Position numbers and translations under genes: made by a program. Under the pieces are notes generated by a model. It searched no databases. It was not told the DNA's origin and saw only the letters and a program-made list of their open reading frames with translations. A DNA stretch of 64,000 nucleotides from Octopus vulgaris (taxonomy: Eukaryota): the NCBI GenBank assembly GCA_951406725.2, contig OX597819.1, positions 60,822,001-60,886,000 of the forward strand. Reading direction: 5' to 3'. Below, piece after piece: positions 19,100 through 55,365 of this stretch (within the stretch, counting starts at the first letter, position 1; each line of letters begins with the position of its first letter).

Positions 19100-19297
19100 C
19101 CATGATCGATCGCTAACCACTAAAGCTTTCTTTATTCTCTCTCTGTTTATTTTCTCGTGTTCCTTTATGTTGAAGAGCGTAGGCTCGAAACGTAAAATAC
19201 TTTCTCACCTTCCCGAGTGTTAAACTAATACACGTTTGTTGTTTACATACCTGACTTCGTCTTTTGCTTTTTTGTTTGTTTTTTGTAAATTCCAACT
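19100..19297 (+). mobile_element. Penelope-like/retrozyme-like repeat (HHR family 1) with a hammerhead-like motif at 19163-19197
   Basis: Homologous to copies at 38.3, 38.8, 46.9 and 55.3 kb. Motif CTTT-ATGTTGA-A-GAGC-GTAG-GCTC-GAAA-CG-TA-AAAT (C3 mutated here). The 3' end abuts (TA)n. Confidence 0.7.
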
Positions 19298-19887
19298 ATA
19301 TATATGTGTGTGTGTGTATCCGAGCGTGCATGTGTATGTGTGAGTGTGCATGCGTGTGTGGGTTGCATGCGTGTGTGGGTGTGCATGCGTGTGTGCGTGT
19401 GCGCACACGCGCGCACATGTGTTTGTCCTCCACCACGTCTATGTTTATACACATGTACATATATGTATATGCATACATATGTGCACACACGCATACACGC
19501 ACACATACACACGCACACACACATACACACATACTCACATATACAAGTGCACAAATATATATCTTTTATTAAGCAATTTTCATATTTTCTTAGGCTTTTT
19601 CTTTTTACACTTAATTTGGAAAAATAAAGTTCTTAAATTCATATTCAACGTTTCCAGATATTCACATTTTCATTTCCACGAATTGGATATACATGGTGTC
19701 TGTGTTGCCTCTAATTTACTGATCAAATTTATGTAAACTTTTCCGCCAAAGGGTTTTTTGACCGTTAGACTTTTACGTCAGTAGTCTCATATTGACTTAT
19801 TTGTGGTAGTGAAAACATTTGACCACGCGTTAAATATTTTGATGTGTGTTTGTTTTGGCGTTGTATTGAAATATGTATATATGTTTT

Positions 19888-19978
19888 GCAAGAAGCTTGC
19901 TTCCCAAATATATGGTTCCTAATTCAATCCCTGAGCGTGGCATCTTGGACAAGTGTCGGAAACTGAAAGAAGTTCGTC

Positions 19979-20034
<56 letters not shown>

Positions 20035-20525
20035 CACTCTAGTTGTGTGAGTGTCTGTCCCCTTCGATTTAGATTCCTAACTCCTCCCACATTTTGCGGT
20101 GCAGTTTAACCAAATTCGGGTATCTTATAGTCGTGATTCATATCGAGCCCGTCTGACTATTAGCGCGCGTCAACGATGAGTCTACGATTTTAAAAATAAT
20201 TTAACATCATTTTTTATTCCATTTTAATGCATAAAATGCATCATGTGTCGATGGCGGCGGAGTTGGCGTCCACGCTCACAGCTGCACCTGTTTGCTTCTC
20301 CCCTTCCCTCCCTCGTGAAGCTGTGGGGAAGGGAGTGTAAAGAAATCAACGTCGTAATGCGTTGTGAAGGAAACCAGCGTTCTTTTAGAATAACGACTTC
20401 ATGGCTTGAAGACACCAAAACAAAAATGGCTAAGAAAGCCCGAATTTATAAGGGAAGTAACTCTCTAAAAATGCTTATATAGTTATTTCCCTTACAAACC
20501 CGAGCAACGCCGGGCGATACTGCTA

Positions 20526-20561
<36 letters not shown>

Positions 20562-20800
20562 TGGTGAGGGGGGACAAACACAGACACAGAAATACACACA
20601 TACACATATATGTGTGTGTGTGTGTGTATGTATATTTCTGTGTCTGTGGTTGTCCCTGTGGTTGGCAACTTACCGGTTCGGTAAAAGAGACCGATAGAAG
20701 CAGTACTAAGCTTACAAAAAATAAGTCCTAAGGTCGATTTGTTCGACTGAGGCGATGCCCCAGCATGACTGCAGTCAAATGACTGAAACAAGTAAAAGAA

Positions 20801-20802
<2 letters not shown>
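19888..20802 (+). mobile_element. SINE-B split by a Helitron in its internal (TA)n
   Basis: SINE-B 5' part at 19888-19980 and 3' part at about 20630-20802 (...CAGTCAAATGACTGAAACAAGTAAAAGAATAAA); a local palindrome lies at about 20571-20655. Confidence 0.75.
20030..20526 (+). mobile_element. Non-autonomous Helitron
   Basis: 3' end ...CCCGAGCAACGCCGGGCGATACTGCTAG|T; the last ~65 bp are nearly identical to the 8834-9217 element. The 5' end is obscured by (TA)n. Confidence 0.8.
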
Positions 20803-20874
<72 letters not shown>

Positions 20875-20876
<2 letters not shown>

Positions 20877-21106
20877 GGGTTGGACAAAAGTGATCTGGCA
20901 GAAAATCAAAACCATTTAATTCCAAGATTAAAACAAAGAATTATTTTATATGCGACTTCGCTTATAAATAGACAAATGTTTAAAAAAAACGCGATTTTTA
21001 ACTCACAACATTCAATTATTAAACATTCATAATTGGAATGAATGAATAAAACTGACTATTTAAGTATTTATGGAATTTTGATTTACTGTCGGGTGATTTT
21101 TGGTCA

Positions 21107-21112
<6 letters not shown>
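20875..21112. mobile_element. Tc1/mariner-type MITE in (TA)n
   Basis: About 40-bp imperfect TIRs: CAGGGTTGGACAAAAGTGATCTGGCAGAAAATCAAAA versus the reverse complement of the right end, TAGGGTTGACCAAAAATCACCCGACAGTAAATCAAAA. Confidence 0.75.
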
Positions 21113-21159
<47 letters not shown>

Positions 21160-21428
21160 CGTATCATTTAGTTTGGCGCTCTAACCTCACTGTGAACCAC
21201 CCTCTTCTTTTTGATGAATAACCATGAAGATTTCTGAAACGGATTCGATGCCACACAAAAACGTAGAAAAGCGTAGTCGATGAGGACTTCCTTATTACAT
21301 CTCACGCATTGTATCTTATCAAGACCGGAAGGGGTGAAGCACACAGTCTATCACTGTGGAGAGTTAAACGGACGTACTTAAATCCTCCTCATCATCATAA
21401 TCAACTACAACAGAAACAACAACCTCGG

Positions 21429-21842
21429 TGGAGGCGCAATGGCCTAGTGGTTAGGGCAGCTGACTCGTGGTCGTAAGAACGCGGTTTCGATTCCCAGACC
21501 GGGCATTGTGAACCCCGCTGTACTCATTCACCACAACTTTCTCTCACTCCTACTTCTGCCACAAAGCAGAGGAACCATGGTGTAACCCACTATGGTGTGG
21601 TAAAACTTTCAACCCTAGTCTAGATTGCGAATCCTCTGCACCCCCGGATGGTTCAGCTATCCACTCGTTAAAAGCCACCGTTTACGGAATGAGGATAACA
21701 ACATAGCTTTTGCGCCCCTGCAACCGCCAGTCTATCGCGTGTGGTGGGTAGATCTTTAAGTTGCCACGCGCATTCTTAGTAGGCTCGAATTAGAGATTAT
21801 TCTGTGTGGCTAATGACGTGAGTCCTGATTGGAAGAATAAGA
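21429..21842 (+). mobile_element. SINE-C head with tail type 3
   Basis: Same tRNA head as 17968 with an unrelated ~285-nt 3' part; 15-bp TSD AAACAACAACCTCGG at 21414-21428 and 21843-21857. Confidence 0.85.
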
Positions 21843-21869
21843 AAACAACAACCTCGGACACTACTATCT

Positions 21870-22110
21870 CGATTCCTAGGGTCCGTAGGACCACTTTCCT
21901 GGTTTCCATGGCATATAAAATGACCAAGATAACAGCACCCAACCTGAACGGGACCTAGTCCGTTTCAGGTTTACTCATTTATAACTGAATAAACTGAAGT
22001 AACAAGAAATGAAGTGTTTTGCTCAAGAACGCCACGCACCACCCAGTCTAGTCCGGGAATTGAAACCACAATCTTGCGATCTTGAGTGGCTGAGCCACTT
22101 GGTCACGAGC
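21870..22110 (-). mobile_element. Decayed CORE-like SINE
   Basis: ACTCATTT.TAACTGA.TAAACTG.AG.AAC..GAAATGAAGTGTTTTGCTCAAGAAC block as in SINE-D, with a different tail. Confidence 0.65.
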
Positions 22111-22572
22111 CTAGGTATTTAATCCAATCCATTGCTCTATGTTGTAGCCGCTTTACAGAAATAAAATAAAGCAAAAACTAAATATAGTGAAAGGAGAAAA
22201 AAATCGGAAAAATATTTCTTGATCTAAATTGTTAATGTCAGTTGAAAGACTATGTTATAAATATATTTAATAGAAAACAAAGAAAGACAGAAATATAAGC
22301 GTTAAGAATTTAGAATGAAAGAATGCATGCGATGCATAAGGAAGACTATATTCAACTATTAGAACATTCGTCGAAACATTCGCACTGTTATAGAGAAAGG
22401 AAGAAGTCACTCATGGAAGCTGGCATCTATATAGTACACCGTACAAAAATAGGTATTTGAAAAGATGCGCCATTCTTAGAGGAAGTTGTTATTGAATAGG
22501 CGAACACATACACACTAACATGCATGCATTCATAGTTTATGTAATATGACTGCCCCACCACACACTTATATA

Positions 22573-22637
<65 letters not shown>

Positions 22638-22688
22638 TATATACATGCGTATGTATGCAAGTGTGCATATATATATATATACATACCG

Positions 22689-22719
<31 letters not shown>

Positions 22720-22845
22720 TGTATGTATGTATGTATGTATGTATGTATATATAATAACAAATTAATAAATAAAACATATGCATATATACATACATATATG
22801 TACGTACCTACATCTACATGTATATATACATGCATATATGGGTAC

Positions 22846-22877
<32 letters not shown>

Positions 22878-22891
22878 CCTATATATATACC

Positions 22892-22923
<32 letters not shown>

Positions 22924-22932
22924 CATGCATAA

Positions 22933-22971
<39 letters not shown>

Positions 22972-22973
22972 GC

Positions 22974-23016
<43 letters not shown>

Positions 23017-23664
23017 TGCCTACACACACATACACCCACACACACTTGTATATATAATATACATACACTAACATATATTGACATACATATGTATACGTAT
23101 GTACATATGTATGTATGTGCGCACATATATTTTTTGCAAGAGAGATTCTGAAGTAGATTTTTTTCACAAGGAAGGGAGGAGAAGATGAGAGTGGGTGAAC
23201 AATACAATAGAAATTACGGAGGAGTAAAAGAGAAAGGAAAAAGAGAAAAAGATGGTGAGGAGAAAGAGGAAAAGAAAGTGAGCGAGAAACGCTTTTAGAA
23301 TGGGAAACGCTAAGGAGAGTTGAAAATGGAGATAGTTAACCGCTAGAAAGACAGAATAAAGCAAGTGGCACTTAATGAAATATGGGAGGGTAAAGACTAG
23401 AAGGATGGAGAAGGATATAATAAAGTAGAGAGGATTGGTGGGAAGAGAGGAAGAAAGAGAGAGAGAAAGAAGGGTAGGAGAAAGGGAGAGAAAGAGGGAA
23501 GCGGAGAGGCGGGGAAAGAAATGGGAGGGAGAGAGAAGGAGAGAAAGGGGGAAAAGAGAAAGAAAGTGTGTGGAAGTGAACTGAGACATACAGATAACTA
23601 AATGAGCAAAAGTAAAAAAAAAAACATTAACGAGGAAGTAGGAGACGTTAGGAAAATCCGAAAG

Positions 23665-23707
<43 letters not shown>

Positions 23708-24187
23708 GAAAGAGAGAGATGTAAAGGTAGGGAGAATGAGAAAAAGGAAAGAGAAAGAAGGAGAGAAGGAAAGGAGTGGATGAGAGAGAATGAAGGGAAA
23801 AGAAATGTAATCCTTATAATGAAACATATGCAAGTATATCATGTGTATGTAACCGAAACAATACTAGCTCTTACTCTCATCACCTACGATACACTCCTTG
23901 AGTACTTTATATCTCAGATCGTCTCTTACACAAATTTCCTCTCCGAAGTAATGAAATAGAAGTCACTTATTGTATGTCACATCACCTCACTCACTAGTGG
24001 TCGAACCAGCCAATGAGATACGATAACACGACAATGATCAATGGAAAGAAGTGACAAGTTGTACTTTTGATATAAGTTGAAGTCCTGGAGATAAGCTGTT
24101 GGAAATAAGGTTGGACAATTGTTGTGCTGAAGTCGGCTATAGAGCCAGGAACACGTGTCCACAACTGTCCTCCTATCTCTAGATACC

Positions 24188-24423
24188 TATTTCTTTATTA
24201 CCCACAAGGGGCTAAACACAGAGGGGACAAACAAGGACAGACATAGGTATTAAGTCGATTACATCGACCCCAATGCGTAACTGGTACTTAATTTATCGAC
24301 CAGGAAAGGATGAAAGGCAAAGTCGACCTCGGCGGAATTTGAACTCACAACGTAACGCAGACGAAATACCGCTAAGCATTTCGCCCGGCGTGCTAACGTG
24401 TCTGCCAGCTCGCCGCCTTCTAA
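24188..24423 (-). mobile_element. Young SINE-A, full length, with 14-bp TSD
   Basis: TSD TATCTCTAGATACC at 24174-24187 and 24424-24437. Confidence 0.92.
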
Positions 24424-24929
24424 TATCTCTAGATACCAAGCATGTACTCTTCCTCTACGGTATATCAACTTGTGAGAATTCCTGATTCTTCAGATTACTC
24501 CCCCCACTCCTCACATGGAGCTGGCCCTAATCGATATATGGTGACAGAACGATCGTCAGATTGACAAATGAAAAATAACATGACGTCAATATAAAACACC
24601 ACCTATTTAGAAATATTTAAAAATTGGATAATGAAGGCACAGAAGAATGAACTTGCCCCAATATATATTAAAAAAATGCTTAAAATACCAAAAGCACGTT
24701 TCAAGCTTAAAGGGTTCTGAATTACGCTTTATATTTATGCGTGTGTGTGTATGTGTGTGCGTGTGTGTGTGAGTGTGTGCGTGCATGTGTGTGTGTATTT
24801 ATATATATATATCTATTTCTTAAACAAGAATATTGTTGACAGTGATTTTGAAGTTTCGGTCAGTTAAGCCATCGTCTAATCCCTTAGATTGATGTAAATT
24901 TTTTATTATAACTAAATATAAAAACAAAC

Positions 24930-25028
<99 letters not shown>

Positions 25029-25039
25029 AAATATAGTAT

Positions 25040-25279
25040 AATTGATAAAAAGTATCGAGTGAAATTGCCGTAAGGCGTGGAAAATCTGACGTTTCGGACA
25101 AAGTACCCTTCTTCAAGGAAAACTTGAAGGGAGAGAAATTAATGAGACATCAGAGTTGTATTTGGATATACAACTTTGCTGTCTCTCATTTATTTCTCTC
25201 CTTTCAAATTTTCCCTGGAGAAGGGCACCTTATCCGAAACGTTAGATTTTCCCCGTTCACTCTACGTTTTTTATCGATT
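25040..25279. repeat. About 240-bp fold-back palindrome with a hammerhead-like motif in each arm (Penelope-like inverted terminus)
   Basis: Arms GGAAAATCTGACGTTTCGGA...GAGAC / GTCTC...TCCGAAACGTTAGATTTTCC around the centre GTTGTATTTGGATATACAAC. Confidence 0.75.
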
Positions 25280-25915
25280 TTTCTAAGCAAGTCTTGCCGA
25301 CGCAGCCCAACATCAGCCTCTATGGGCAAATGTCATTTTCTCTAGTCTCAGGTTGACCCAAACTCTGTGATGAAACAGTGTCGGCAGAAACTATGTAGAA
25401 TCCCGTCGAATGGACTATGCTTGCAATTCAAGAGGTACAACTTTATTGCACACCATATCTCTAATGGTACACGTGACTGTAAGATGCTCTGTCGCTTACA
25501 GCGCTTAACACAGGAGCAGGTAACTCCGTTGATAGAACAACTGAATTCTCGCAATGTCGAACGACGGATATCCTATGCCCTACACATGTATGTATTCGTG
25601 TATGTGTATGTTTGAGTATACAAATAAGAGGAAAATACGCTATACAGAAGTAGTATGTAATTATTAATTGTTGAGGTAAATATTCTCTGTTGTTGATCTT
25701 GCTACATGATCAGCAAGACAGTCAAGCTTATGTCTGGCTCAGATATCGGATTTAAAACAACTCCTTAAACACCAAACATATACACAAATAAACACAATGA
25801 CACATGTGTGTATGACGAGCTTCTGTACACTTTTCGCCTACGTATGTATAAGTGTGTGTGTGTGTATGTATGTGTTAATATAAATACTAGTCAACCTATA
25901 TCTATGCACCAGCCG

Positions 25916-25988
<73 letters not shown>

Positions 25989-26105
25989 AATATCTATCTA
26001 CCTACACATCTTTATTTATATTACCGTCTATGAGTATGCGTACGAACTAGACACGTATCTACGTTTTTCGAAAAGAAATGAGAACTACACAAGCGCACAT
26101 ACAAT

Positions 26106-26154
<49 letters not shown>

Positions 26155-26688
26155 TGGTTGAGAGAGAGACAGAATGGGTTGGAGAAGAGTTGGGGCTATC
26201 AAATAAAAGAAGTGGTATATGAAGAAAAGGCAATACAAAATTTAGGGATAAGCAAAAGAAAGTATACATTAAAAAATTATAGAAACTACAGATATTCTGA
26301 GGAAAATATTTGTTTTTGGTTTCAAGATTTTTGTAATAAAATGGAAATGTGTGGAGTAATTTATTTCAGTGAAATAATGATTCAAAGAAGAATAATGTCT
26401 GACGTTAAACGGTTCTGTTGGAAAATGCCTCAACATTTCAGACATTTTAATTTATACGAGGTTTAGATGGCCGAATGGTGAAGAAGTTCGTTTCGCAGCC
26501 GCGAGGTCTCGAGGTCGATCATACTGAGTGGCATCTTGGACAGATTGTTATTTTCTATAGCCTCGGGTCGCGGAAATTGTATAGAATCCCACCAGGTGGA
26601 TTGTACATGTCACATTCCGTGTCACAAAATCCTTGTCACATTCCGTGTCACACTGATTCTACCGGAGAATTATGTTAAGGGTACCAAC

Positions 26689-27040
26689 AGGCGCAGGTGT
26701 GGGTATGTGGTAAGAAGCTTGCTTCCCAACCTCATGGTTCCGGGTTCAGTCACACTGCGTGCTATCTTTGGACAGTGTCTTCTACTATAGTCTCGGGCCA
26801 ACCAAAGGCTTATGAGTGGATTTGGTGTGTGTGTGTGTATGTGGGTGTCCCTTTGTGTCCCTGTTTGTCCCCCCACCACTGCTTGACAACCGGTGTTGTT
26901 GTGTTTACATCCCCGTAACTTAGTGGTTCAGCAAAAGATTCCGATAGAATAAGTACTAGGCTAAAACAAAAGTACTGCGGTCGTTTCATTCGACTGAAAA
27001 GTCTTCAAAGCAGTACCCCAGTATGGCCGCTGTCTAAAGA
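26689..27040 (+). mobile_element. SINE-B near full length
   Basis: Head GGCGCAGGTGTGGGTATGTGGTAAGAAGCTTGC...GGGTTCAGTCAC, internal (TG)n and 3' block. Confidence 0.85.
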
Positions 27041-27059
27041 TGGAGAACCGAAACGATGA

Positions 27060-27792
27060 AAGGTAACGTCGATCTCGTCGGAATTTGAACTTAGAACGCC
27101 AAGATAAACGAGACGTCGATAGGCTTTTGGTACTGTGTGTTGACGATTCTTATTTCTTTATTGCCCACAAGGAGCTAAACATAGAGGGGACAAACAAGGA
27201 CAGACAAAGGGATTAAGTCGATTACATCGACCCCAGTGCGTAACTGGTACTTGATTTATCGACCCCGAAAGGATGAAAGGCAAAGTCGACTTCGGCGGAA
27301 TTTGAACGTATAACGTAACGGCAGACGAAATACGGCTACGCATTTCGCCCGGCGTGCTAACGATTCTGCCAGCTCGCCGCCTTTGGCTTCAAATTTCGGC
27401 ACAAGACCAGTAATTTTGAAGGGAGAGGGCTAGTAGATGGTACTTATTCCATTGACCCTGATAGGATGAACGGCAACGTTGACCTCGGTGGAATTTGAAC
27501 TCAGAACGTAAAGACGGACGAAATGCCGCTCAGCATTTTATCCGGCGTGTTAACAGTCCTCCCACCTCGCCGCCTTAATCTTTTCTACTCAAAGCACAAA
27601 TCCCGAAATTTTTGGAGAGGGGGCCAGTCGATTAGATCGACCCTAGTACGCAACTGGTACCTAATTTATCGACTCCGAAAGCATGAAAGGCAAAGTCGAC
27701 CTCGGCGTCATTTGAACTCAGAACGTAAAGACAGACGAAATGCTACTGAGTGTTCTGTCCGGCGTGCTAATAATCCTGACAGCTCGCCGCCT
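27060..27792 (-). mobile_element. Cluster of four SINE-A copies, including a young copy (27151-27381) nested in an older one
   Basis: Repeated reverse-complement B box/central domain; junction at 27150/27151. Confidence 0.88.
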
Positions 27793-28579
27793 TAATGTAA
27801 TAAATATAATAGAATAAAAGAGACGCTGGTTTTGAATGAAGTATTCTTGGTTTCCATTTTTTTTTCAAATTGTTCTTTCTCTAATCAATATCTAATTTTC
27901 TTTCCAATTTAAGAATTCCAAAGTGATTAAAAATAGCAACCCGACTTGGTCTCCCGGAAGTCATTTGTATTCAGATCCTGCTTTCGTTTTTCTTTTTTGT
28001 AAATTTAAACTTTGCTTGTGTTTAGTTATTTTTTTATCTGTCTTTTTTTTTAACAAGAAATATGCTGCCGATTTGCAGTTTTACAAAACTAACAAACATT
28101 TTGTAAGAGCGACATTTTACTTGCAGCCTTTGCTTTAACATTGGTATGTAATCATTATATTTGTACATATGACTTTATTTTTAGGTGAAGAAAATGGTAT
28201 CCTGTGACGTTCATATCATTTCTTAAGGGTATTAGTGATAGAAAATTGAAAAAGAGCAGCATCTTGAGATCGATGTACTCTTAGCGTAGTTTTATTGTTT
28301 GTTGTTGTCTTGTTTCTTTGTTTACGTTACACATCACTAAAAATAGTATTTTCTGTTATTTCTGTCACACTACGTACTTCCACATCACAATTTACATTCC
28401 GTTGCAGAATTGGAAATTGACGCAGTAAATCAGGAAATAATGTATAAGTTATAAGTAGCAACGTTTGTTTTCTTATTTTTTTACTCGGTTCCTAGGACTA
28501 AAATAAGGCCGACTGCCCTATTTCCTTGGCCAGGATCACAACATCCCTCATACTCGAGATGCTGGTCTGTTGCAGTATT

Positions 28580-28945
28580 CAAAGCTTGAAATATTTGAAG
28601 GAAAGGAGTCAATTACATCGACCCCAATACTTCACTGCTACTTTATTTCATTGACCTCGAAGGGACATGAAGTAAAATTGACTTCGGCAAGATTTGAACT
28701 CAGGACGTTCAGAGCCAGAGGAAATGCCGCTCACTATTTTGTCCGACGTAGAAACGATTCCGCCTGCTCGCCGCCTTAACGCTTGCCTTTTTCTCATTTT
28801 TGGTATAAGGACAGCATTCATAATTTTTTAGAAGAGGGTACGAGTCGATTACATCGACCCCAAATTTAACAGGCATTTTATTTTATCGATTCTGAAAAGA
28901 TGAATAAGCAAAGTCGACCTCGGCAGTATTTGAACTTAGAACGTT
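28580..28945 (-). mobile_element. Two decayed SINE-A copies
   Basis: Diverged central domain and B box. Confidence 0.7.
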
Positions 28946-29168
28946 TAACCGGAAGACTAGTGTTAAATATAATGAAATATTTTACCTTTCGGTGCCAACA
29001 TAAAATTATGTAGGATCTGAAATGAATGGCTTAAACATAGACGTACTACAGTAGCGTTGAATACGTTGGAACATCCCAGCAAAATTTTTTATTCATATAC
29101 AAAAGACATCCCGAAGAACCAAAGCACCAAATATTTTCTTAAATATTATTTACATTATATATACCTAC

Positions 29169-29696: not shown

Positions 29697-29707
29697 ATTC
29701 TCTTAAA

Positions 29708-30595: not shown

Positions 30596-30629
<34 letters not shown>

Positions 30630-30694: not shown

Positions 30695-30764
<70 letters not shown>

Positions 30765-38274: not shown

Positions 38275-38323
<49 letters not shown>

Positions 38324-38420
38324 CGGGAAGCTTTATGAAAATAAACAAAAGACGAAGGCAGGTGGAAAACAAACGAACAATTGTATTAGTATGACGCTCA
38401 GGAAATATAAATAAAACAAG

Positions 38421-38458
38421 TCTTTAACGTTTCGAGCCTACGCTCTTCAACAGAAAGA
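38421..38458 (-). ncRNA. Minimal type I hammerhead-like motif, variant core CUGUUGA
   Basis: rc = UCUUU-CUGUUGA-A-GAGC(GUAG)GCUC-GAAA-CG-UU-AAAGA; perfect 5-bp stem I, 4-bp stem II, palindromic AACGUU loop 3. Confidence 0.7.
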
Positions 38459-38848
38459 TACACAGAGAGAGAAAAACACAGAAAGAAGGAGAGAAAAAAT
38501 GCGTGCAGTAGCTAACGAATCAACATGGCGATCTGATTTCGGTCAGAGGTCAAAGATCAAACATGAGACGCGAGAGCGAAATAAGGGGAGATAATAGGGT
38601 TGATAAAAGGGTTGAGGGACCAGCTAATAGTGCGTAGGAGGGGTCTGGATGTGTGTATGTATAGGGTTGGTGTATGTATTAGTATGTATAAGGGTGTGTG
38701 TGTGTGTGTGTGTATGAGAGAGTATTAGTGCGTAGGATTGGTCTGGACGTGCGTATGTAGGCAGAGTTTACGAAAAAAAACAAAAGACGAAGACAGGTGG
38801 TGTACAAAACAAACAAATGTATTAGTATAACGCTCAGGAATAGAAAGT

Positions 38849-38884
38849 CTTTTACATTTCGAGCCTACGGTCTTCTACAGAAAG
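38849..38884 (-). ncRNA. Hammerhead-like motif (family 1, core CUGUAGA)
   Basis: rc = CUUU-CUGUAGA-A-GACC(GUAG)GCUC-GAAA-UG-UA-AAAG; second tandem copy. Confidence 0.6.
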
Positions 38885-39263
38885 GGACACAGAAAAAACA
38901 AGGAGAGAAACCAGGAGAGAAAAAAATGTGTAGTGGCTACACGATGTAAATATACATGTATGTATATATACAATGTAAATATACATGTATATATATATGT
39001 AAATATACGTGTATATATATATGTACGTATGCATATATATATAATATGTATGCAGGCATATACATGTATATATATATACATGTGTGTAGATATATATATA
39101 TACACACACACATATACAAAGGCGTGACAGTGGTAAGAAGCTTGCTTCCCAACCAATGGATCGGGGTTCATAATGACCTGATATATATACTTATGTGTAT
39201 ATATTTGTATGTATGTATATATAAATACATGCATATATACACACACACATATATATATACAAA

Positions 39264-42136: not shown

Positions 42137-42255
42137 GCTTACGGCCATATCACGTTGAAAGCACCGGTTCTCGTCCGCTCACCGAAGTTAAGCAACATCG
42201 AGCCTAGTTAGTACTTAGATGGGTGACCGCTTGGGAAACCTAGGTGCTGTAAGCA
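42137..42255 (+). rRNA. 5S rRNA: 5S rRNA sequence (full length; probably a retrocopy or SINE head rather than a functional gene)
   Basis: GCTTACGGCCATATCACGTTGAAAGCACCGGTTCTCGTCCG...AGTTAAGCAAC...GATGGGTGACCGCTTGGGAAACCTAGGTGCTGTAAGCA. Terminal helix GCTTAC/GTAAGC and boxes A and C are present. There is no T4+ terminator, the copy is isolated, and a few conserved positions are substituted. Confidence 0.93.
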
Positions 42256-43316: not shown

Positions 43317-43359
43317 TCCAGAGACTAGTTTCAGAGTCATTGCTCATCATCAGTCTGGA
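43317..43359 (-). ncRNA. Minimal type I hammerhead ribozyme motif, canonical core
   Basis: rc = UCCAGA-CUGAUGA-U-GAG(CAAUGA)CUC-U-GAAA-CUAG-UC|UCUGGA: 6-bp stem I, GUC cleavage triplet, palindromic ACUAGU loop 3. Confidence 0.78.
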
Positions 43360-43628: not shown

Positions 43629-44334
43629 TTCAGTGTGTGTGTTAACGATTCTGTCAGCTCGCCGCCTTAACAAGCAAAGGAATATTCTAGCAGCATTTCG
43701 TCTGTTTTAACGTGCTGAGTTCAAATTCCTCCGGGGTTGACTTTGCCTTTCATCCTTTCGTGATCGATAAAATAAGTACAAGTTATGCATTGGGGTCGAT
43801 GTAATTGAATTACTCCCCACCACAAAAAAAAAAAAAATTGCTGACTTTGTGCCAAAAATTGAAACTATTATTGTAGATGTTGTTGAAAGCGTTGATGAAT
43901 TCATGATGTATTTAGCAAGCCGGGAAGAGTAATGAAAAAAAACAGAAAGTAAATAAAGTAATTTAGTTCGAAATAAACGATTATTATAGTGGAGGAGCAA
44001 AAAAATATGGCGGCTTTTTATAAATTTCAACCAGTTGCCTTCTCTAGTTGATTAAATCTCGAGGTGGAGCCTCTTTATTTGATGGGAACCAATTCCTTTT
44101 TTTGTCATTGAAAGATTCTTCCGAATGTAGATGTACAATACTATCACGATAAAACATACATACATAGCGTATACATGCATAACATATACATACATTCATA
44201 GCCACACATACACACACAATCTTTCCCTTCCTTTTAAGCGTTAAACTAATACATTTTTTAAAACTTGTATCCTCGTGCTGTTTGATTTTTTTTGCTCATT
44301 ACCTAATATATGTATTTATGTATGTATTTATTTC

Positions 44335-44550
44335 AATATGTGACCGCGCGTGTATCGTTGGCGATTTTCTTTTTCCGTCTTCCCTTCTTTGAACTTTTTC
44401 TATATTTCTGATGAAGAACTCCGCTCGAAACGTGAAATCCTCTTTTCTTTCCTTTCTTGAGCGTCCAATAATACTGTACTTATTCCACGTCCTCGCGTTG
44501 TTTTTTCTTGCTTGTTCATGTTTGGATTTATTATTCTGTCCCCACAGCGA
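44335..44550 (+). mobile_element. Penelope-like terminal repeat with hammerhead-like motif at 44404-44438
   Basis: ATTT-CTGATGA-A-GAAC(TCC)GCTC-GAAA-CG-TG-AAAT; downstream GAGCGT..AATA block similar to HHR family 1. Confidence 0.6.
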
Positions 44551-44695: not shown

Positions 44696-44732
<37 letters not shown>

Positions 44733-45316: not shown

Positions 45317-45864
45317 TTGGGTTGTCCGGAAAGTTCGTGCCGATTAATAGTAGCTTACCTTTCGACTTATTTTGAGTCCATAAAATAGGATTTGACTACA
45401 CTTCCATTTCTGCCACAGTTTAAGCTATCTTTTCGTGGAAGAAGGTTTATGTTCCTATAACCTGTGTTAATTCTGTAACCCTTTAAAATGGAAGATAAGT
45501 TCATTTTCAGCACTTGATACTTTGGGAACCAGACAAAAATTGCTGCAACTTAGCTGGGATGTGTCATCCCACCCTCCATATTCACCAGATATTGCTCCTT
45601 CGGATTTCCACTTATTCAGGTCTCTGCAGAATAGTCTTAATGGTAAAAATTTCAATTCCTTGGATGACGTAAAAAAATACCTAGATGAATTCTTTGCCAT
45701 GAAACCACCTCAATTCTGGGAAGGGGGTATTTTCAAGTTAAAGTAAAGATGGAGACGCAGTTTTCAACAAAATGGTTCATATTTAGTTGATTAAAAATGT
45801 GATGGCAAGTATTTGACATTTTTCTTTCCTTTAAAAATCGGCACGAACTTTCCGGACAACCCAA
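45317..45864 (+). mobile_element. Internally deleted mariner (DD34D) element
   Basis: Perfect 29-bp TIRs TTGGGTTGTCCGGAAAGTTCGTGCCGATT, TA at the right; transposase C-terminus HPPYSPDIAPSDFHLFRSLQNSL (ORF 45522-45746). Confidence 0.95.
45522..45746 (+). pseudogene. mariner transposase C-terminal fragment
   Basis: YSPDLAPSD-type motif; the N-terminus and catalytic centre are deleted. Confidence 0.9.
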
Positions 45865-46793
45865 TAGAATGATTTTGCTAGTTCTTTTAGGTGCCTATGT
45901 TGCCGTGAGCAGATATTGATAACCTCTCAGAACTTTAAACTTTAACGCAGCTGAACATCCAGGACACGTGACAACTATAAGGGGAGAGAGAGACGGGGGA
46001 GGGTTTGTATCAATACCCAGGTGGTACCTGTTACAGCTGAGTAAACTGGTGCGAAATCTAATGGAATGCCTCTCTCAAAAACACATAACAGCGCTCGATC
46101 GTAACCCGAACCCGCTAACCTACGCGCCTTCACTGTTTGAAATTAACGGATTGGATAAAGAACTGGACTTATTGGCGAAATATCTAATCGAATGCGCTAC
46201 AGGTGTTTCGTTCTGAAACTACATAGGACATCTATACAGATACCCAGGTACCTTAGTTGTTGGGTATTCTCCATCATTTTCTGGCAAACTGTCAACAGAA
46301 CTAAATATTTATTAACACATACCGTTAATAATTAAGTTGATATAATTATTTATTGTATCCTCATATGTGATAATTATCTCTTTATCTGTCTGACTGCCAG
46401 TCCACCTGCCTGTCTCTGTGTGTATCTGTGTGTGGGTCTGTCTGTATATCAGTTTTTCATGCTCTCGTGCATGCATTCTCTTCCCCTCTCCCTATTCATC
46501 TCTCTCTATGTATATATGAATGTGTATGTGTACACACATACACATGCATGCACACGTACTCACACACACACACACACCTATACACGCACACATTTGTTTT
46601 GGCTGGATGGTTTATTTATATATGCTAGTGTCTATTGCCAATGTGACCAGCGCTTCTCACTGCCAGCGGCAAAAGATTAAGTAGAGTGCTGAAGGATGTC
46701 TTCCCTTATTCTGAAACAAAGTAAATATTTCAAAATCGGACACTAAGTGACACGACACATAATATATCCCTCCAGTTGTTAGAAAAATTCACA

Positions 46794-46845
<52 letters not shown>

Positions 46846-46849
<4 letters not shown>

Positions 46850-47110
46850 AGATTTCACAAAAAAAATAAACAAAAGACGAAGACAGGTGGTGTAGACAAC
46901 AAACATGTATTAGTATAACGTTCGAGAAGTGAAAACGTCTTTTACGTTTCGAGCCTATGCTCTTCCACAGAAAGGAACACAGAAAGAAACAAGGAGAGAA
47001 AATAAAGAATGTGTAGTGGCTAGCTTTCTGTCATGGCAAATGCCGGACAGAAGGGTCACACAGGGGAGCTAGGGAGAAGGGGAGTTAATAAAGTGGTGGT
47101 GTAGGGAGTA
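46846..47110 (-). mobile_element. HHR family 1 repeat; motif at 46939-46974 (core CUGUGGA)
   Basis: rc CUUU-CUGUGGA-A-GAGC(AUAG)GCUC-GAAA-CG-UA-AAAG; abuts (TA)n. Confidence 0.7.
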
Positions 47111-47340
47111 TAACTCCAAACTTACAGGGAAAAATTCAATTTAGTATTAAAAAAATTTCACATTGTAAATATATACTATATATAAATTAGAGAATTTACT
47201 TATTATATATTGTTTATTCATTTTTTTGTACTTTTTGTGATCTAGTTATGTTTTATAATATATTTTACTTTTTCTTTATGATTTGGTTTATGTCTATCAT
47301 TGTTTGAATTACATAGTGGTTTTTCTCTAATTTATATATA

Positions 47341-47666
47341 AAGGTAAAGACCCCCTTCGGTCATGAGTGACCATGGGTTTGCACCTAGAGAGTTACCCTC
47401 TGAGGCACAAGTCTGGGCAAGGTTGTTTTTATGGAAGATCAGTAGTCGCCCATGCATACCGGCCTCCCCTCTCTACGCCACCAGTGTTATCCAAGGGAAA
47501 GACAAAGGTCGATACAGCTTGGCACCTGTGACGTCGCAACTCATTTCTACAGCTGAGTGAACTGGAGCAACGTGAAAATAAAGTGCTTTGCTCAAGAACA
47601 CAACACGCAGCCCGGTCCGGGATTCGAGCTCACAACCTCACGATCGTAAGCTCGACGCTCTAACCA
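47341..47666 (-). mobile_element. SINE-D
   Basis: Homologous to 15506-15812. Confidence 0.88.
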
Positions 47667-48204
47667 TAAATATATACACACGCACATACATACAAGGTGG
47701 CCATAAAGTAGGTTTACAGTTTATTCAACTGTCTCTTCTGTATTCATTTATTAACAGTTTAGATCTTAATTATAAAAAAAATATGAAACCATTATTCTGT
47801 GCTAATTTAGTTAATTTTGTCAGGCTCCCTTTTCAGTTTGTAAGTTAGAAATTTAAATGTAATAAAATGTAACGACAGGTGAAACACCGCTAGGCATTTC
47901 GTCGTCCAGCGTTCTAAGGATTCTGCCAGTTTCAAATTTTGGCCCAAGGCCAGTAATTTTGAGAGGAATGGGGTAAGTCGATACCATCGACCCCCCCCAG
48001 TATTTTATTGACCCCGAAAAGATGAAAGGCATAGTTAAACTCAAAAGGATTTGCACTTAGAATTCAGAACTTAAAAAGCCGATAGAAATTTTGCAAGATA
48101 TGGCACGAGGCCAGCAATTTGGACGTAAGGGTTAGTCCATAAGATCACTCCTTAGCCCAATGCTTGACTGGTTCTTTTATTTTATCTATCCTAAAAGGAT
48201 GCAT

Positions 48205-48430
48205 TGTTTCACGTTGCTCCAGTCCGCTCAGCTGGCAAAAATGAGTAGTGCCTGTATTTCAAAGGGCCAGCCTTGTAACATTCTGTGTCACGCTAAATCT
48301 CCCTGAGAACTACATTAAGGGTACACGTGTCTGTGGAGTGCTCAGTCACTTGCACATTAATTTCACGAGCAGGCTGTTCCATTGACCGGATCGGCCGGAA
48401 CACTCGTCGTCGTACCCGACGGGGTGCCAG
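48205..48430 (+). mobile_element. SINE tail type 1 preceded by a CORE-like segment
   Basis: CCTGTATTTCAAAGGGCCAGCC...CGTCGTACCCGACGG as in 18170-18349. Confidence 0.8.
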
Positions 48431-49006
48431 AAAAGGATGAAAGGCAAAGAGCTGGAAGAGAAGTCCTTAAGTATTTTTGTATTTACCTATGAGACTGACA
48501 ATTCTGCAAATCCAACATCCTTAGGTCGAAACTAATTAACGTAAGACATTTCGCCCGACGCTCTTAACTGAGTCCATCCATCCATTGTACTTATAATAAA
48601 AAAAGAAACCAATACATTTTGTAGGGAGTTAATCAACTATACTGATCCCAATATTTGACAGGCAACTAGAGCATTGGACTGGCAGAATCGTTAGGGCATC
48701 GGAAAATTGCTTGGCGATATTTGTTCCAAATTCATACGTTCGAATTTCAAATACTATAGGGGTCAATTTTTTAAGGTGGTGAATTGGCAGAATCATTACA
48801 ACGCCGGACAAAATGCTGAGCGGCGTTTCTTCCGTCTTTACGTTCTGAGTTCAAACTCCGCCAAGGTTGAATTTGCCTTTCGTCCTTTCGGCGTCGATAA
48901 AATAAATACCAGTTTAACACTGGAGTCGATGTAATCAACTTATACCCCTCCTCCGAAATTGTGCCAAAAGTTGAAGCCAATTTTTAACTGGTAACCTATT
49001 TTATCG

Positions 49007-49938
49007 ACAATAACGTATCCACTCATTCTTAATGCGTTTGACCGATTCGAACGTGAATGTCTGATCTCATTGTTGCTCTTCTGTCAACGGAGAACACTTA
49101 CTTCCTTTAGACCAGTAGTTCTCAACTGGGGTCCATATAAGATTTTAGTGGGGGTCCGCACAAGCAGAATAATAAATTGGGTCTACAGTAGTATTTTATG
49201 GGTCCACGGAAAATTTTTGCTTAAAATGTATTTAACAAGAAACAACTAGTTTTCTTTCTCTTTCAACTTACACATGAGAGTGTGTGATGAACAAAATAGG
49301 AATTCCGAAAGAAGTATCTATAAAACAATGTTTTAAAGCATAAAAATGGCTATGGGCATCCACCAGAATAAAATAATAATCAAAGGGTTCCATAAGTTAA
49401 AAATGGTTGAGAACCACTGCTTTAGCCGATGTGTGTTCATAACACATGGTATTCACTTTGAGATACTGTTTTTTTCATCCCCGTTGTGTGTCTTCTTAGT
49501 CGAAGCTACCCAACCAGACCGATGAGGCCGAGCTCTTGTTTATAGGAATCAGCAGACAGATTATTTGCTGATATGTGCCGATGTTTTCCAAACAAATAAT
49601 AATTCCTAGGGTACGTGTAGAAGAGCGGGAATCCGAACAGTAATGTATTTATTTTTTCTTATTACGTTCAGGCATTTTCGAACGTAAATACCTGATCATT
49701 GTTGCTTTCCGTCGTATCCTTATCATATTAACCAGTCTGGTGAGGTAGCTTCGACCGAGGAGGCATACAATGCGGTCAAAACACTGCGATGTCTCGTGAT
49801 GAATCTCTTGTGCTATGTACAAACATCATCTAGGGGAAGATGAACAAACATAATCTCCGGTGATGCTAAGCAACAGCGTTCAGTTATTCACGTTTGAATC
49901 TGCCATAACGAATTAAGATTGAATAGATACGTTATTGT
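49007..49938. mobile_element. Old long-inverted-repeat (foldback/MULE-like) element
   Basis: Perfect outer 13 bp ACAATAACGTATC/GATACGTTATTGT and ~200-bp degenerate arms (e.g. GTCGAAGCTACC/GGTAGCTTCGAC). Confidence 0.6.
49113..49419. mobile_element. hAT (Charlie-like) MITE nested in the foldback arm
   Basis: CAGTAGTTCTCAAC / GTTGAGAACCACTG; 8-bp TSD CTTTAG(A/C)C. Confidence 0.9.
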
Positions 49939-50814
49939 TTGGATTCTTGATGTTATTCACGCATCCAAGGAATTATTATTTTATCGATTCAGAAAGGTCA
50001 ACTAAAAGGCAAAGCCAACTTCAGGAGCATTCCAAACTTAGAAAGGAGGAAACATGTAACAAAGTCCATCTCGCCTGAGTTATAAAGTAAATAATTCTAT
50101 CTACTATGAGCACAAAACCTGAAATTATGGTGGAAAGAGAGCAAGTCGATTGCATTTACCCCTACTGCTCGTCTGGCTTATCGTTACCGATAAGATGAAA
50201 CGCAAAGTCAGTCTCAGTGGTTTTTGAACCCAGGACGTAAAGTCGGACGAAATGCCACTAAGCATTTTGTCCGTTGCGCTAACCATTCTGCCAACCCGCT
50301 GCCTTACTAAATTATGCTTTCTTCTATGGGAACAAGTCCTGAAGTTTTGAGGGAAGGATAAATAATATAGTCGGTTTCAGCGGCATTTGAACTCAGAATG
50401 AAAAGACGGACTAAATGCCGTTAAGCATTTTGTCCGGTGTGTTAACGATTCTGCCAGCTCGCCGCTTTAACTGCCTTACTGAATAATGCCAGTATTTTGT
50501 TCGGCGCTCCTCGACTGATGATGCTAATCACATCACCTCAAACTAATACACGCAAACGCAAAAGCCATCCTTTCAAAGAATGACACTGACCGGATATTCT
50601 GAAAGATTTTCGTAATAATTCCTTCACATCTACAAGAGACAAGAAAGCTCTTTCCGGCATTTCCATTACTTGCCCTTTTAGACTCAATAGCATCTAAGTA
50701 CTTAATGACATGTCCACCATTTCACATATTTTTCATTACTGCCGACCATGCTTTTAATATATCTATGTTAACATACATGTTTACACAGATTTAGACACGT
50801 GTGTGTATGTTTAT

Positions 50815-50860
<46 letters not shown>

Positions 50861-51323
50861 ACACATATATATACATACACGCACATATATACACATATAC
50901 ACACAATTATATACACACACATGTATATTAATGCATACATAAACACACACACATACATACACGCACAAACACACACACACACCTATATATATACACACAC
51001 ATATACACGCACACATATATGTATATACATGTATACACAAACGCACTCGCATATTGAACATATATATATACATGTACACACATGCACACATACAGAGAGA
51101 GAGAGAGAGAGAGGAAGAGAAAAATGCGTATATAAGTGCAAATATTTTTCGAACATGCATATACATGCATGTATGTAGGCATGCAGACATAATAAGCACA
51201 TACATAGACACCATTGTATTATGTTCTTTTGTTAATTGATATTGTATAAACGTTTCAAATGTTCATTTACAAAATTTGTGTGCTTGAACAAATATATAAT
51301 CAGGTATGCATATGAAGATTATT

Positions 51324-51372
<49 letters not shown>

Positions 51373-51373
51373 G

Positions 51374-51409
<36 letters not shown>

Positions 51410-51861
51410 ATGAATTCTCTTTAAAAGAAAAGTGAAAATATTTCGAATTTAGATAAGTGTACATGTATACACACATAGATACATGTGCAAATGCATATAT
51501 ATATATATATATGTGCGTGTACACGCACATACACTAATACTCACATACGCACACACTGAAATATACAGTGGTCCAATAAGTTTTCAACAGTCAGAAAGAA
51601 CAGGTACTCGTGTATCAGGTAATAGAGTAGATATACTATTATTTAAAAAAAATATTATTATAGTCTCCTTGCAGCCAATTATTGTTACGGAACGGTTTCA
51701 TGTAAATAAGCTTCTAGGGCAAAATATGGGCTCTTTGCTACTGTAGAGAGCCGAGGCCATACTTTTCCATTCAGCTATGTACGATGAGTTAATTTATTTT
51801 TATAGTTTTGGAAAGTTACCAACATGAAACTATTGGGTGGCAATAATAATAATTATTATAA

Positions 51862-52390
51862 CAATACTTTCTACTATAGGCACAAGGCCTGAAATTGGGG
51901 CGGGGAGCTAGTCGATTTCATCGACACCAGTGTGTAACTGGTACTTATTTAATCGACCCCGAAAGAATCAAAGGCTAAGCGACCACTGCGGATTTGAACT
52001 CAGAACGTAGCGGCAGACGAAATACTGCTAAGTATTTTGCCCGGCGTGCTAACGATTCTGCCAGCTCGCCGCCTTAATAAAAATAATAATGATGATAATA
52101 ATAATAATACTTTCTACTATAGGCACAAGGCCTGAAATTTGGGGGAGGATGCTAGTCGATTTCATCGACACCAGTGCGTAACTGGTACTTATTTAATCGA
52201 CTCCGAAAGGATGAAAGGCTAAGTCGACCACGGCAGAATTTGAACTCAGAACTTTACAACGGACGAAGTACCGCTAAGCATTTCGTCCAATGTGCTAACA
52301 ACTCTGCCAGCCCGCCCAACTGACACTTATTTTATCGACCGCGAAAGGGTGAAAAACAAAGACAACCCTCGGCAGAATTTGAACTCAGAA
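51862..52390 (-). mobile_element. Two tandem SINE-A (old tail) plus a fragment
   Basis: Near-identical units starting AATACTTTCTACTATAGGCACAAGGCCTGAAATT. Confidence 0.88.
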
Positions 52391-53284
52391 CGTAGTGCAA
52401 AAAGACACGCTATCAAGCACTTTGTCTGTACACGAGTGCGCGTGTGTATGTATATGAATATCTATCTGTCTGTGTGTCTGTCTTTCCCCACCTGTTTGTC
52501 TATCAATCTGTTTATCAGTCTGTGTTCCTTTTTAATTAATTCAACTTCCATCTCGTTACTCTTTCCCTATCCACCCGTCCATTCTATACAACCATCCATC
52601 CATCCACTCATCCATGTATGTATGTGTATTTCTTACTTCTTTTTACCATCCTTTTATTTAGCTAGTTAGACAGAGGTGTTAAAATTGTATCCCTTTTTAA
52701 TTATCACCTCCGTCCTTTTGATCTTTCTCCCTCATTTTCTCTTCACCTCTATCTCCACACACACACACACACATATATATATACACAAACATACATGTGT
52801 GCGTTTGTATATATATATATATATATATACAAACATACATGTGTGCGTTTGTATGCGAGTGAACATGCGTATTTCTATTTCTTTGCTGTCCTTTATCCTT
52901 CTCTATTTACCAGTTGGATTATTTTATCTCTTGTCTTCCTCATTTGTTTATATAAAAATAATCACCCAGCAATAACTTCCACTTCTTCAATAATTACTTT
53001 ACTGCCAGCCGCATCATTTCTGTATACTTATGTTTGATTTCCGTGTCTGGTCATCGTTAAAAGCGACACCTTTCTCTGTCAAACATTAACCTATCACTTG
53101 CCGTGTTTTCTCGTATCTGTTTTATTTAAACATCGTTTTTTTCTGACAGAGATTGACTGTGTTTTAGACACATTTCACAATTTCCCATTATTACATTACT
53201 GCTCAGTTTCAATGTTCTGTGACTTTCTTTCACGGACAAATTGACAATTTCTTTGAATCCAGAAATAGAGAGAGCGAGAGAGAG

Positions 53285-53319
<35 letters not shown>

Positions 53320-54472
53320 CGGCCAGCTCCTGTGCTTCGTTTCTTTCTTTCGTATTTTTCTATTTTTCTTTTGTTGAATATTTTCTATTGAAGTCATAGT
53401 ACACAATAATCACGAAAGTTTATCGATTTTTTTTTATTGATTCTGACTGTGAAACTATTCATACGACATTTAGTGTCAACTTCAGTGAACGGGGGGAAAA
53501 AAAACATTAAAAATATTACTGTAACATAGATATATAAAACCAGACTATGAAAAGCGATATTTGAAAATGGCGGCAAGAAGGAATAAAAGGAGAAATTATT
53601 ATTAAGATGTTTGATACTTTTAGTAGCAGTGAAAAGAGAACAAAAGATATATCGCATCTGCCCTTTCGCAGAAGATGGCGAAATCTTATGACAAATATAA
53701 GGAAATGAAATCTCAGACAAATATGCAGCTAAACAAATGTGATTTATTTAGATAATATCTAATATTGGAAATAAATAATTTAGACCATGTTGGACCTCGA
53801 ACCTTTCCAGTCTATTGTCTTTATCGTTGCTCTGGTCTTTGTCTTCCGAGAAGATTTAGTCGCTCTTTGAAGTAATTTGACAGCGTTTCACACAATAGAG
53901 CATAAATAACCTATTGCAATAGGTCTAAAATAACGGGTGCATGTGTACATGGTTAAGAAACTCAGTTCCGAATTATGAGTTACCAGGTTCAAACTCACAG
54001 CATGGCATCTTGAACAAGTGTCTTTTTCGACAAACTCGGGTCGTCCCAATCCTTATGAATGAGGCAAAGTTGACGGAAGCTTTATTTATAAAAAAAAAAA
54101 CGCTACGAGGATAAAAACAGTTGGTGAATGCTGTAATTAAAAGACACAATTTTGCCAAGCAATATATGAGACTGATTCTGTTTAACAATAACCTTCAGTG
54201 ATCACGTAACTTTGGAATACTCAGCCGCTTAGACTCTTATTTAATAATTTGAGTAAGTAGTTTAATTGATGGAATAACTAGAATGTTTATTTTTGGGATC
54301 CAATAAGGATGAATTTACATTTATTTTAGATCTGTGGAGACAATGAAAAGTCACCCAAAAGTACACCGGCGTAAGGATTCTCCTAGTATACGTATGCGTG
54401 TCTGTCTGTCTGTGTGTATACAGACATATATATGCATAGATAAATACATCTATCTATCTATCTAATACATCT

Positions 54473-55141
54473 ATCGGGTGCGGCGAACAAACTATCGTCT
54501 AACTTACACAGATATATTTACCAAAATTACATAAAAATATCTTGAAAGACTAAAGAATAAATTTATTCAATAAAATTCCCATTGGCTTCAACCACAGTCT
54601 CCAGACGACTTCAGAATCTCCTGCAACTTTTGGACGCTCTCCTGGTTTAAGTTGGTGAATGCTGCCATAATCTTTGTCTTCAGTTCATATTTGATGTCAC
54701 AAGGAGTTTTGCTGGTCTCTCTCTCAACGCGCCCCACACGTAATAATCAAGGGAGTTAGATGGCCAGATGTTAGGGGTGATAGGGTCGCAGAAATTGTCT
54801 GTGGGAAGATGAATTGAGTCATAACGACGCCATCGCTAGTGATCACCCCAAACACCATGATGCTGACTGGATATTTGATTTTTATCACTCTCGGTACATG
54901 TCCTCAGATTTCACTGTCCTCAAATTGAAACCGAAACTCTGAAATATTCGTATGCGAATGCCAAGCAGTACAGCATGCCGTTTCCAAATTTCTGGCAGAG
55001 TGAATTGGGTCATGGTGCTGTCTTTCTCACAGACTGTGCCCGACTGACCTCACTATACTGTGAAGCCGCCAAAATCAAAAACAAACAATGAACATGCGCG
55101 AAATTAAAAATATAAAATAGTGTCAATTTACCCATTACACC

Positions 55142-55145
<4 letters not shown>
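54473..55145 (-). mobile_element. Decayed Tc1/mariner (maT/DD37D-like) element
   Basis: Minus-strand remnants KYPVSIMVFGVITSDG, NIWPSNS..LDYYVWG and EANGNFIE; degenerate GGGTG termini. Confidence 0.72.
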
Positions 55146-55206
<61 letters not shown>

Positions 55207-55210
<4 letters not shown>

Positions 55211-55365
55211 TGGAATTTACAGAAACACAAAATAAAAGATGAAGACGGGTGTGTAAACAACTAATAGATGTATTAGTTTAACGCTCGGGAAGTGAGAAAG
55301 TCTTTTACGTTTCGAGGCTACTCTCTTCGACAGAAAGGAATACAGAAATAAGCAGAAAGAGAAAA
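55207..55365 (-). mobile_element. HHR family 1 repeat; motif at 55302-55337 (core CUGUCGA)
   Basis: rc CUUU-CUGUCGA-A-GAGA(GUAG)CCUC-GAAA-CG-UA-AAAG; abuts (TA)n. Confidence 0.68.

Follow-up and report, generated by a model that had tools for sequence, protein, structure and literature searches.

The 64,000-nt stretch of the Octopus vulgaris genome analyzed here (assembly GCA_951406725.2, contig OX597819.1, positions 60,822,001 to 60,886,000; hereafter the window) carries five copies of a minimal hammerhead-like ribozyme motif in which core position 6, an A in the canonical CUGANGA core, is U. As judged from comparisons of sequence across the genome, U6 is fixed throughout a whole lineage of this motif, all positions but N7 and N17 are held constant, and the host is a Neptune-like Penelope element. 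We put a probability of roughly 0.55 on the reading that the U6 motif is an attenuated ribozyme, cutting as a dimer or with the assistance of a protein, in a Neptune-like element that has been spreading recently.

An earlier inspection of the letters of the window (the sequence-only reading) had described five copies of a single layout, and re-reading of the sequence recovered all of them with the same coordinates, strands, and layout, with U at position 6 in 5/5 copies and U, U, A, G, and C at position N7. The motif, as read from the sequence, has an extra base after A9, a G10.1-C11.1 pair, and a palindrome replacing helix III. This palindrome, ACGU, was present as described, but it is not the loop 3 that it had been taken for; it is made up of A15.1-C15.2-G16.2-U16.1, and no loop 3 exists. 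Likewise, the CG that was thought to follow GAAA in every copy was found in four, the 38849 copy having UG, and the predicted cut after GUA would hold for copies with N17=A, whereas it would fall after GUU in those with N17=U.

When nhmmer was run over about 220 nt, the five copies gave E values of 1e-54 to 1e-60 with a model made from these same copies. Exact matches to the 31-letter motif in the genome (2.8 Gb, 227 contigs) numbered 14,238 for U6, 140 for A6, and 356 for C6/G6, and 0 for the reversed control; the nhmmer E values and the 14,238 matches against none in the reversed control therefore indicate that the motif is not a product of chance. U6 made up 96.6% of the 14,734 exact matches, in line with the fixation that the sequence-only reading had proposed. 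In 40 blind 10-kb stretches, ten family copies were found, with position 6 readable in eight and U in 8/8, and 56,000–70,000 copies per genome were estimated from these stretches (95% range about 24,000–129,000). Among 30 loci picked by the endonuclease protein, the motif was detected downstream of the open reading frame (ORF) in 19, with U6 in 19/19. The A6 and C6 copies (30 loci each) were scattered across the U6 subfamilies, as expected of later point mutations. As had been anticipated, the motif escapes standard searches: a hammerhead was absent from the best 150 of 497 Rfam hits on the whole window, and a single-copy Rfam search was likewise negative.

Each of the five motifs lies in a shared repeat about 220 nt long or longer, with 5ʹ ends that vary and a 3ʹ end at a constant 92–99 nt past the motif; the (TA)n tracts noted earlier at the 3ʹ end of four of the five repeats comprise 4, 21, 23, and 16 units. 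In longer genomic copies, the sequence continues upstream through a pyrimidine-rich 3ʹ untranslated region (UTR) to a same-strand ORF. This ORF matched the Pfam reverse transcriptase (RT) family RVT_1 above the cut-off (E 5e-7 and 1e-7), and its C-terminal GIY-YIG match was weak, below the Pfam cut-off (E 0.0055 and 0.077). A CX4CxxC linker precedes the nuclease, which has a CxxC inside and two later H (CCHH motif), and this layout matched that of Neptune1_Nv and not that of Nematis in a by-eye comparison with the supplement of PMC8557442 (the papers cited here and below were covered in part). Corals, snails, crinoids, and sharks have homologous proteins (40–60% identical); no match to the ORF was found within the window. 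In locus L133, two same-strand motifs flank the ORF at a distance of 4,446 nt, placing the motif in both pseudo-long terminal repeats (pseudo-LTRs), and the element shows the Neptune-type habits of a (TA)n target, partial tandems, and 5ʹ truncation. These features bear out the Penelope-like host that had been suggested, and the five window copies are identified as pseudo-LTRs, the 5ʹ-truncated 3ʹ ends of a Neptune-like Penelope retroelement with an RT and, at its C terminus, a GIY-YIG domain. They are not the short non-coding tandem hammerhead units that define a non-LTR retrozyme, being truncated ends of a coding element. Across 24 top-ranked loci (the best matches, four of which are one insertion assembled four times), the initial 280 nt of the 5ʹ UTR differed by 0.03%, indicating that the U6 lineage spread very recently.

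Constancy of the motif across subfamilies and the sister lineage

Position N7 was U in 46, A in 25, C in 18, and G in 11 of the first 100 U6 matches listed. When 221 of the 238 aligned copies were clustered on flanks alone, with pattern-picked loci dropped, eight subfamilies of 8–40 copies each were obtained, and each N7 state was accompanied by its own flanks. N7 was A in 11/11 copies of one subfamily and G in 35/40 of another, and these subfamily-wide states are not, on the evidence of the alignments, CpG decay. The free N7 of the sequence-only reading thus follows flank-defined subfamilies, and the alternative of CpG decay alone is ruled out; the C/U mixtures at N7 in two subfamilies may partly be CpG decay.

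When the eight subfamily majorities are placed on a flank tree, changes in the 36-nt motif are confined to N7 (three steps) and N17 (two steps, A/U only). The other 34 motif columns showed 0 changes, whereas 60 of the 134 columns in the flanks changed (Fisher P 3e-8); with the downstream flank alone, 31 of 87 columns changed (P 5e-6), and the longest invariant flank run was 13. C3, U4, G5, G8, A9, G12, A13, A14, and A15.1-U16.1 were invariant across the eight majorities with C3-G8 kept, and loop 2 (GUAG) was invariant like the core. The variable positions, N7 (A/C/G/U by subfamily) and N17 (A or U), are those free in any hammerhead. Because misaligned pyrimidine runs inflate the flank count, the ORF was taken as a second yardstick, for which ORF-linked copies were too scarce in the three oldest subfamilies. 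With majorities drawn from 10 and 8 copies, the youngest subfamily differed from the G7 one at 32 of 148 fourfold sites and at 13 of 267 second positions, against 1 of 36 sites in the motif (P 0.002). In contigs of four public runs (organisms A–D, three studies), N17 and N7 were the only positions listed as variable inside the motif at a 3% threshold; run X20 was thin, a single alternative letter was listed at N7, and the absence of a position from such a list proves nothing. Individual genomic copies decay alike in motif and flank (4.4% vs 4.8%), indicating that the constraint acts on source elements only.

A group of sister families with a GUUU/AAAC stem I shares stem II and GAAACGU with the U6 lineage and has the canonical CUGANGA core in 4,979 matches, which supports the earlier assignment of the motif to a hammerhead lineage. 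The sister ORF is 64–67% identical to that of the U6 lineage and was recovered as its sister group with a support of 100 in a quick tree of unnamed homologues only. A base other than U stood at position 4 in 7,965 sister matches and was C in 98 of the first 100 listed; on these counts, the sister lineage has fixed U4C, independently of A6U, which is new here. Since the sister families and the Acropora Neptune motif are canonical, we infer that A6U is the derived state in the U6 lineage. Signs of stem covariation, to which the sequence-only reading had looked for support, were seen between families and not within the U6 lineage: eight representatives (rows related to one another, one of them partly misaligned) showed two-sided changes at two of the four stem I pairs, C-G vs G-C between the lineages, with stem II invariant, and inside the U6 lineage the stems never change.

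A transitional A6 subfamily with the stem I of the U6 family was not found in the genome, where 199 matches were obtained when any loop was allowed. Old-looking A6 copies were considered as an ancestral subfamily and rejected, as the subfamily to which they belong, the oldest of the U6 lineage (L222–L250), has U6 in 20, C6 in 8, and A6 in 1 of its 29 copies. The excess of C6 there (P 6e-5 against a 5% rate) hints at a C6 source lineage or an A-C-U path. The youngest copies of the U4C sister lineage (found, e.g., in L382–L401 and L402–L431) have intact frames of 880–1,000 codons and a very long (CA)-rich 3ʹ UTR.

Junctions, folding, and competing explanations

In 30 full-length loci (27 distinct insertions), the junction between the 3ʹ end and the 5ʹ UTR was constant, and the upstream repeat measured 31 to >1,300 nt and read through the predicted cut site in 26/30. 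None of these 30 young copies began at the cut site, no short 3ʹ fragment beginning there was found among the four truncated copies in a set of 118 anchored ones (chosen for the most part because they hold the motif), and at their 3ʹ end genomic copies extend about 100 nt beyond it. As the copies read past the cut site and none starts there, the templates had either stayed uncut or been joined again; what was copied into the genome was RNA not left cut at the motif. The junction pattern fits a circle formed by cutting and ligation, and it also fits strand transfer or long uncut tandem transcripts.

In nearest-neighbour folding, with weak helices, the predicted G5:C15.2 pairing was 0.33–0.99 with U6, 0.00–0.23 with A6, and 0.00–0.06 with C6; in the sister lineage, C7 was predicted to pair likewise in another register, with U4 or C4. 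Folding of single copies gave z-scores of −2.0 to +1.1, which are unremarkable. In an attenuated ribozyme, U6 would remove the A6 contacts, and U4-G5-U6 would close a single copy through its predicted pairing with ACG within the ACGU palindrome. Where two copies lie in one tandem transcript, they would be joined through ACGU and cutting after N17 would proceed slowly, freeing or circularizing a unit-length RNA. Slow cutting may be favored because the cut site lies in the path of the RT, which initiates about 100 nt downstream and has to copy across it. As the rest of the motif has stayed unchanged over many rounds of spreading, it is likely a slowed self-cutter and not a broken one. U4C and A6C have been reported as natural variants that are slowed yet active (PMC3088659, PMC7151607), and both positions are hit here. 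A wider proposal, which we offer tentatively and hold to be on the doubtful side, is that Penelope-like elements (PLEs) have been selected for throttled hammerheads, with A6U and U4C fixed independently, which would cut only in protein-bound tandem precursors and be shut in a possibly circular template. Its component that the monomer fold of each lineage hides the dimerization palindrome comes from folding models and is put forward with the same reserve.

Several points weigh against the attenuated ribozyme. U6 on an already weak minimal scaffold may abolish activity, and the literature on position 6 predicts strong slowing: in one ribozyme with A6C, kobs fell to 3.55e-6 per min when Mg2+ was 0.3 mM (PMC7151607), and single mutants around CUGA were of low activity in a saturation study (PMC9901934). 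Insertion of the Anolis element in vitro needs no cleavage (PMC11167929). Two closed monomers (−10.8 kcal/mol each) were predicted to be more stable than the swapped dimer (−14.9 kcal/mol), 0/30 full-length young copies begin at the cut site, the flank change counts are inflated as stated above, and conservation of the 11 core bases by themselves did not reach significance against the ORF yardstick from one subfamily pair (P 0.07). What looks like erosion was seen in the sister lineage, in which the youngest elements (U4C, intact) also carry a U.U mismatch in stem I and a few canonical copies have G17 (window 44404–44438; L157, L179). Under the NUH rule, G at position 17 should prevent hammerhead cutting; these canonical-core copies may form a small subfamily.

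The main rival, which we judge possible though rather unlikely, is that the motif no longer cuts and that its fold and ACGU are kept for RT/endonuclease binding or for the positioning of internal priming or strand transfer, A6U and U4C then being first steps toward catalytic loss. The 3ʹ ends that in all copies lie about 100 nt beyond the cut site, the 26/30 upstream repeats that read through it with none stopping there, and a loop 2 as invariant as the core speak for such a fold, as do the two sister lineages, each of which lost a core base and continued spreading, the catalytic mutants that insert normally in vitro, and the Naiads, which spread without canonical hammerheads. However, N7 and N17 are the sole variable sites, N17 is always A/U, the 5ʹ strand C3-U4-G5/G8-A9 is constant in 8/8 subfamilies, and both fixed changes fall at positions with known residual activity, which argues against a non-cutting motif.

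We consider it improbable that U6 is compensated, whether by contacts between loop 2 (GUAG) and the stem I bulge, by a protein, or by Mn2+, such that the dimer would cut about as well as canonical minimal hammerheads. Reversion to A6 takes one change, yet it is fixed in 0/8 subfamilies; neither loop 2 nor the bulged stem I varies, and A6C ribozymes cut at 0.18–0.31 per min in Mn2+ (PMC7151607), all of which is consistent with compensation. No compensating core change is visible, however, and the mutational studies, in the parts covered, gave no double-mutant rescue in this region except for C3-G8 (PMC9901934). The equal decay of motif and flank in individual copies, which any insert would show, also agrees with neutral carriage of a ribozyme killed once by A6U, in which N7 would vary by CpG or random decay. 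In the source lineages, however, 34 columns have 0 changes against 20–45% in flanks and fourfold sites, and subfamily-wide A and G at N7 are impossible by CpG decay. The constancy of the subfamily motif relative to the flanks and the ORF yardstick largely refutes neutral carriage, which we regard as highly improbable.

The role of PLE hammerheads is an open question (PMC4209133, PMC8557442, PMC11167929). This genome holds two successful sister lineages with different core changes at near-fixed positions, together with canonical relatives, and the very young intact elements of both lineages form with these relatives a natural series in which it can be asked whether cutting or the fold matters for transposition. 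The commonest motif of its kind in the genome escapes descriptor searches, which bears on claims of hammerhead-less elements. If the throttled reading is true, CUGUNGA would represent a natural core that functions, and cores of this kind would be common and overlooked when CUGANGA is searched for. Core variants at positions 4 and 6 were already known.

Motif copies and other features of the window

Motif copies and host repeats are listed in the table. The 19163 copy is decayed at C3 (C3A, 19167) and at its final stem I base, and stem II mismatches were seen in the 38849 and 55302 copies. The 38849 and 38421 copies form a head-to-tail pair with motifs about 430 nt apart.

Table. Hammerhead motifs and host repeats in the window.
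Feature	Position	Strand	Remarks
U6 hammerhead motif, older subfamily	19163..19198	+	N7=U, N17=A
U6 hammerhead motif, youngest subfamily, intact	38421..38458	-	N7=U, N17=U, 5-bp stem I
U6 hammerhead motif, N7=A subfamily	38849..38884	-	decayed in stem II and at C15.2
U6 hammerhead motif	46939..46974	-	N7=G, N17=A; loop 2 AUAG through CpG decay
U6 hammerhead motif, N7=C subfamily	55302..55337	-	final stem II pair decayed
Canonical-core sister motif (CUGAUGA), same stem II and GAAACGU	44404..44438	+	loop UCC, G17, E 3.7e-6
Host repeat, 5ʹ-truncated pseudo-LTR / element 3ʹ end	19085..19305	+	ends in (TA)4
Host repeat, 448-nt 3ʹ end	38314..38759	-	95% identical to full-length element in L133
Host repeat of 38849 copy	38760..38971	-	no (TA)n; abuts younger 38421 copy at 38760
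Host repeat	46836..47101	-	91% identical to ORF-linked copy in L091; ends in (TA)23
Host repeat	55198..55425	-	ends in (TA)16; 5ʹ boundary uncertain, 55367-55425

Just upstream of the sister copy at 44404, which the sequence-only reading had passed over, a short fragment resembling the 3ʹ tail of the U6 family lies at 44218–44290 (plus strand). Another hammerhead-like motif, at 43318–43358 (minus strand), has a canonical CUGAUGA core, a 5-bp stem I, and an ACUAGU palindrome; it belongs to a different repeat family with relatives in loci L053 and L190. Also present in the window are a lone 5S rRNA gene or pseudogene at 42137–42255 (plus strand; Rfam 110 bits) and, at 887–1374, a 184-nt unit resembling a short interspersed nuclear element (SINE) in 2.6 head-to-tail copies.

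Elsewhere in the genome, four short U6 copies stand head-to-tail about 290 nt apart, with one more inverted, as a natural multimer (L027/L098, G000:C20:14.30 Mb), and a second, more distant GIY-YIG Penelope-like element directly follows a U6 copy (L020, 2033–3009, plus strand). At G000:C8:18600428-18602187, the 5ʹ UTR of the element occurs four times at a spacing of about 492 nt, possibly as a short non-coding tandem derivative. Viral contigs gave 0 motif matches, and metagenome contigs gave one U6 match (MDSQ01015757.1, L371, 1501–1529, minus strand). This U6 minimal hammerhead is from another organism and has unrelated flanks and a different but paired stem I; it is a single copy and may be decay.

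Comparison with known systems

Lunse, Weinberg, and Breaker (2017) reportedly described short PLE hammerhead variants that cut as dimers, of the same motif class and host as those considered here. Neither a natural A6U hammerhead nor a report for the animal group of the host was found in the literature surveyed, outside of which lay that study and some supplements (PMC3088659, PMC9901934) that may bear on the matter. The lone literature match for A6U together with "hammerhead ribozyme" was rejected because it referred to twister numbering.

The lineage described here shares a natural change at core position 6 with the A6C hammerhead of phage Bcep176, which is slow in Mg2+ and good in Mn2+ (PMC3088659, PMC7151607); unlike the lineage here, with its more than 14,000 copies under selection, that variant has C and not U, is one phage sequence, and is not of the minimal dimer type. 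The sister lineage shares U4C with a viroid hammerhead that is slow yet sufficient in vivo (Ambros and Flores 1998, as cited in PMC3088659), the viroid case being a single variant, at position 4 and not 6. The Poseidon PLE hammerhead of Anolis cuts only with its protein and, like the motif here, lies upstream of an internal RT start about 90–100 nt on, with no cut-site ends (PMC11167929); its core is apparently canonical and it belongs to another clade, whereas here the ORF starts about 740 nt after the motif.

Minimal PLE hammerheads show no cutting as monomers and weak cutting as dimers (PMC4209133). Among them, the Neptune motif of Acropora digitifera resembles the U6 motif in being type I without helix III, in its ACGU palindrome, its extra base after A9, its G10.1-C11.1 pair, and its 4-bp stem II ending in GCUC, and in its presence in both pseudo-LTRs of an RT-endonuclease element (PMC4209133). 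In contrast to the U6 found here, all 56 representatives in Fig. S3 of that paper have A6, which its descriptor required, and in the parts covered U3-A8 was the sole core variant reported among metazoan PLE hammerheads (PMC4209133). The U6 motif descends from minimal type I Neptune-type PLE hammerheads and would work like them, and it counts as a variant of them because its position 6 is not A.

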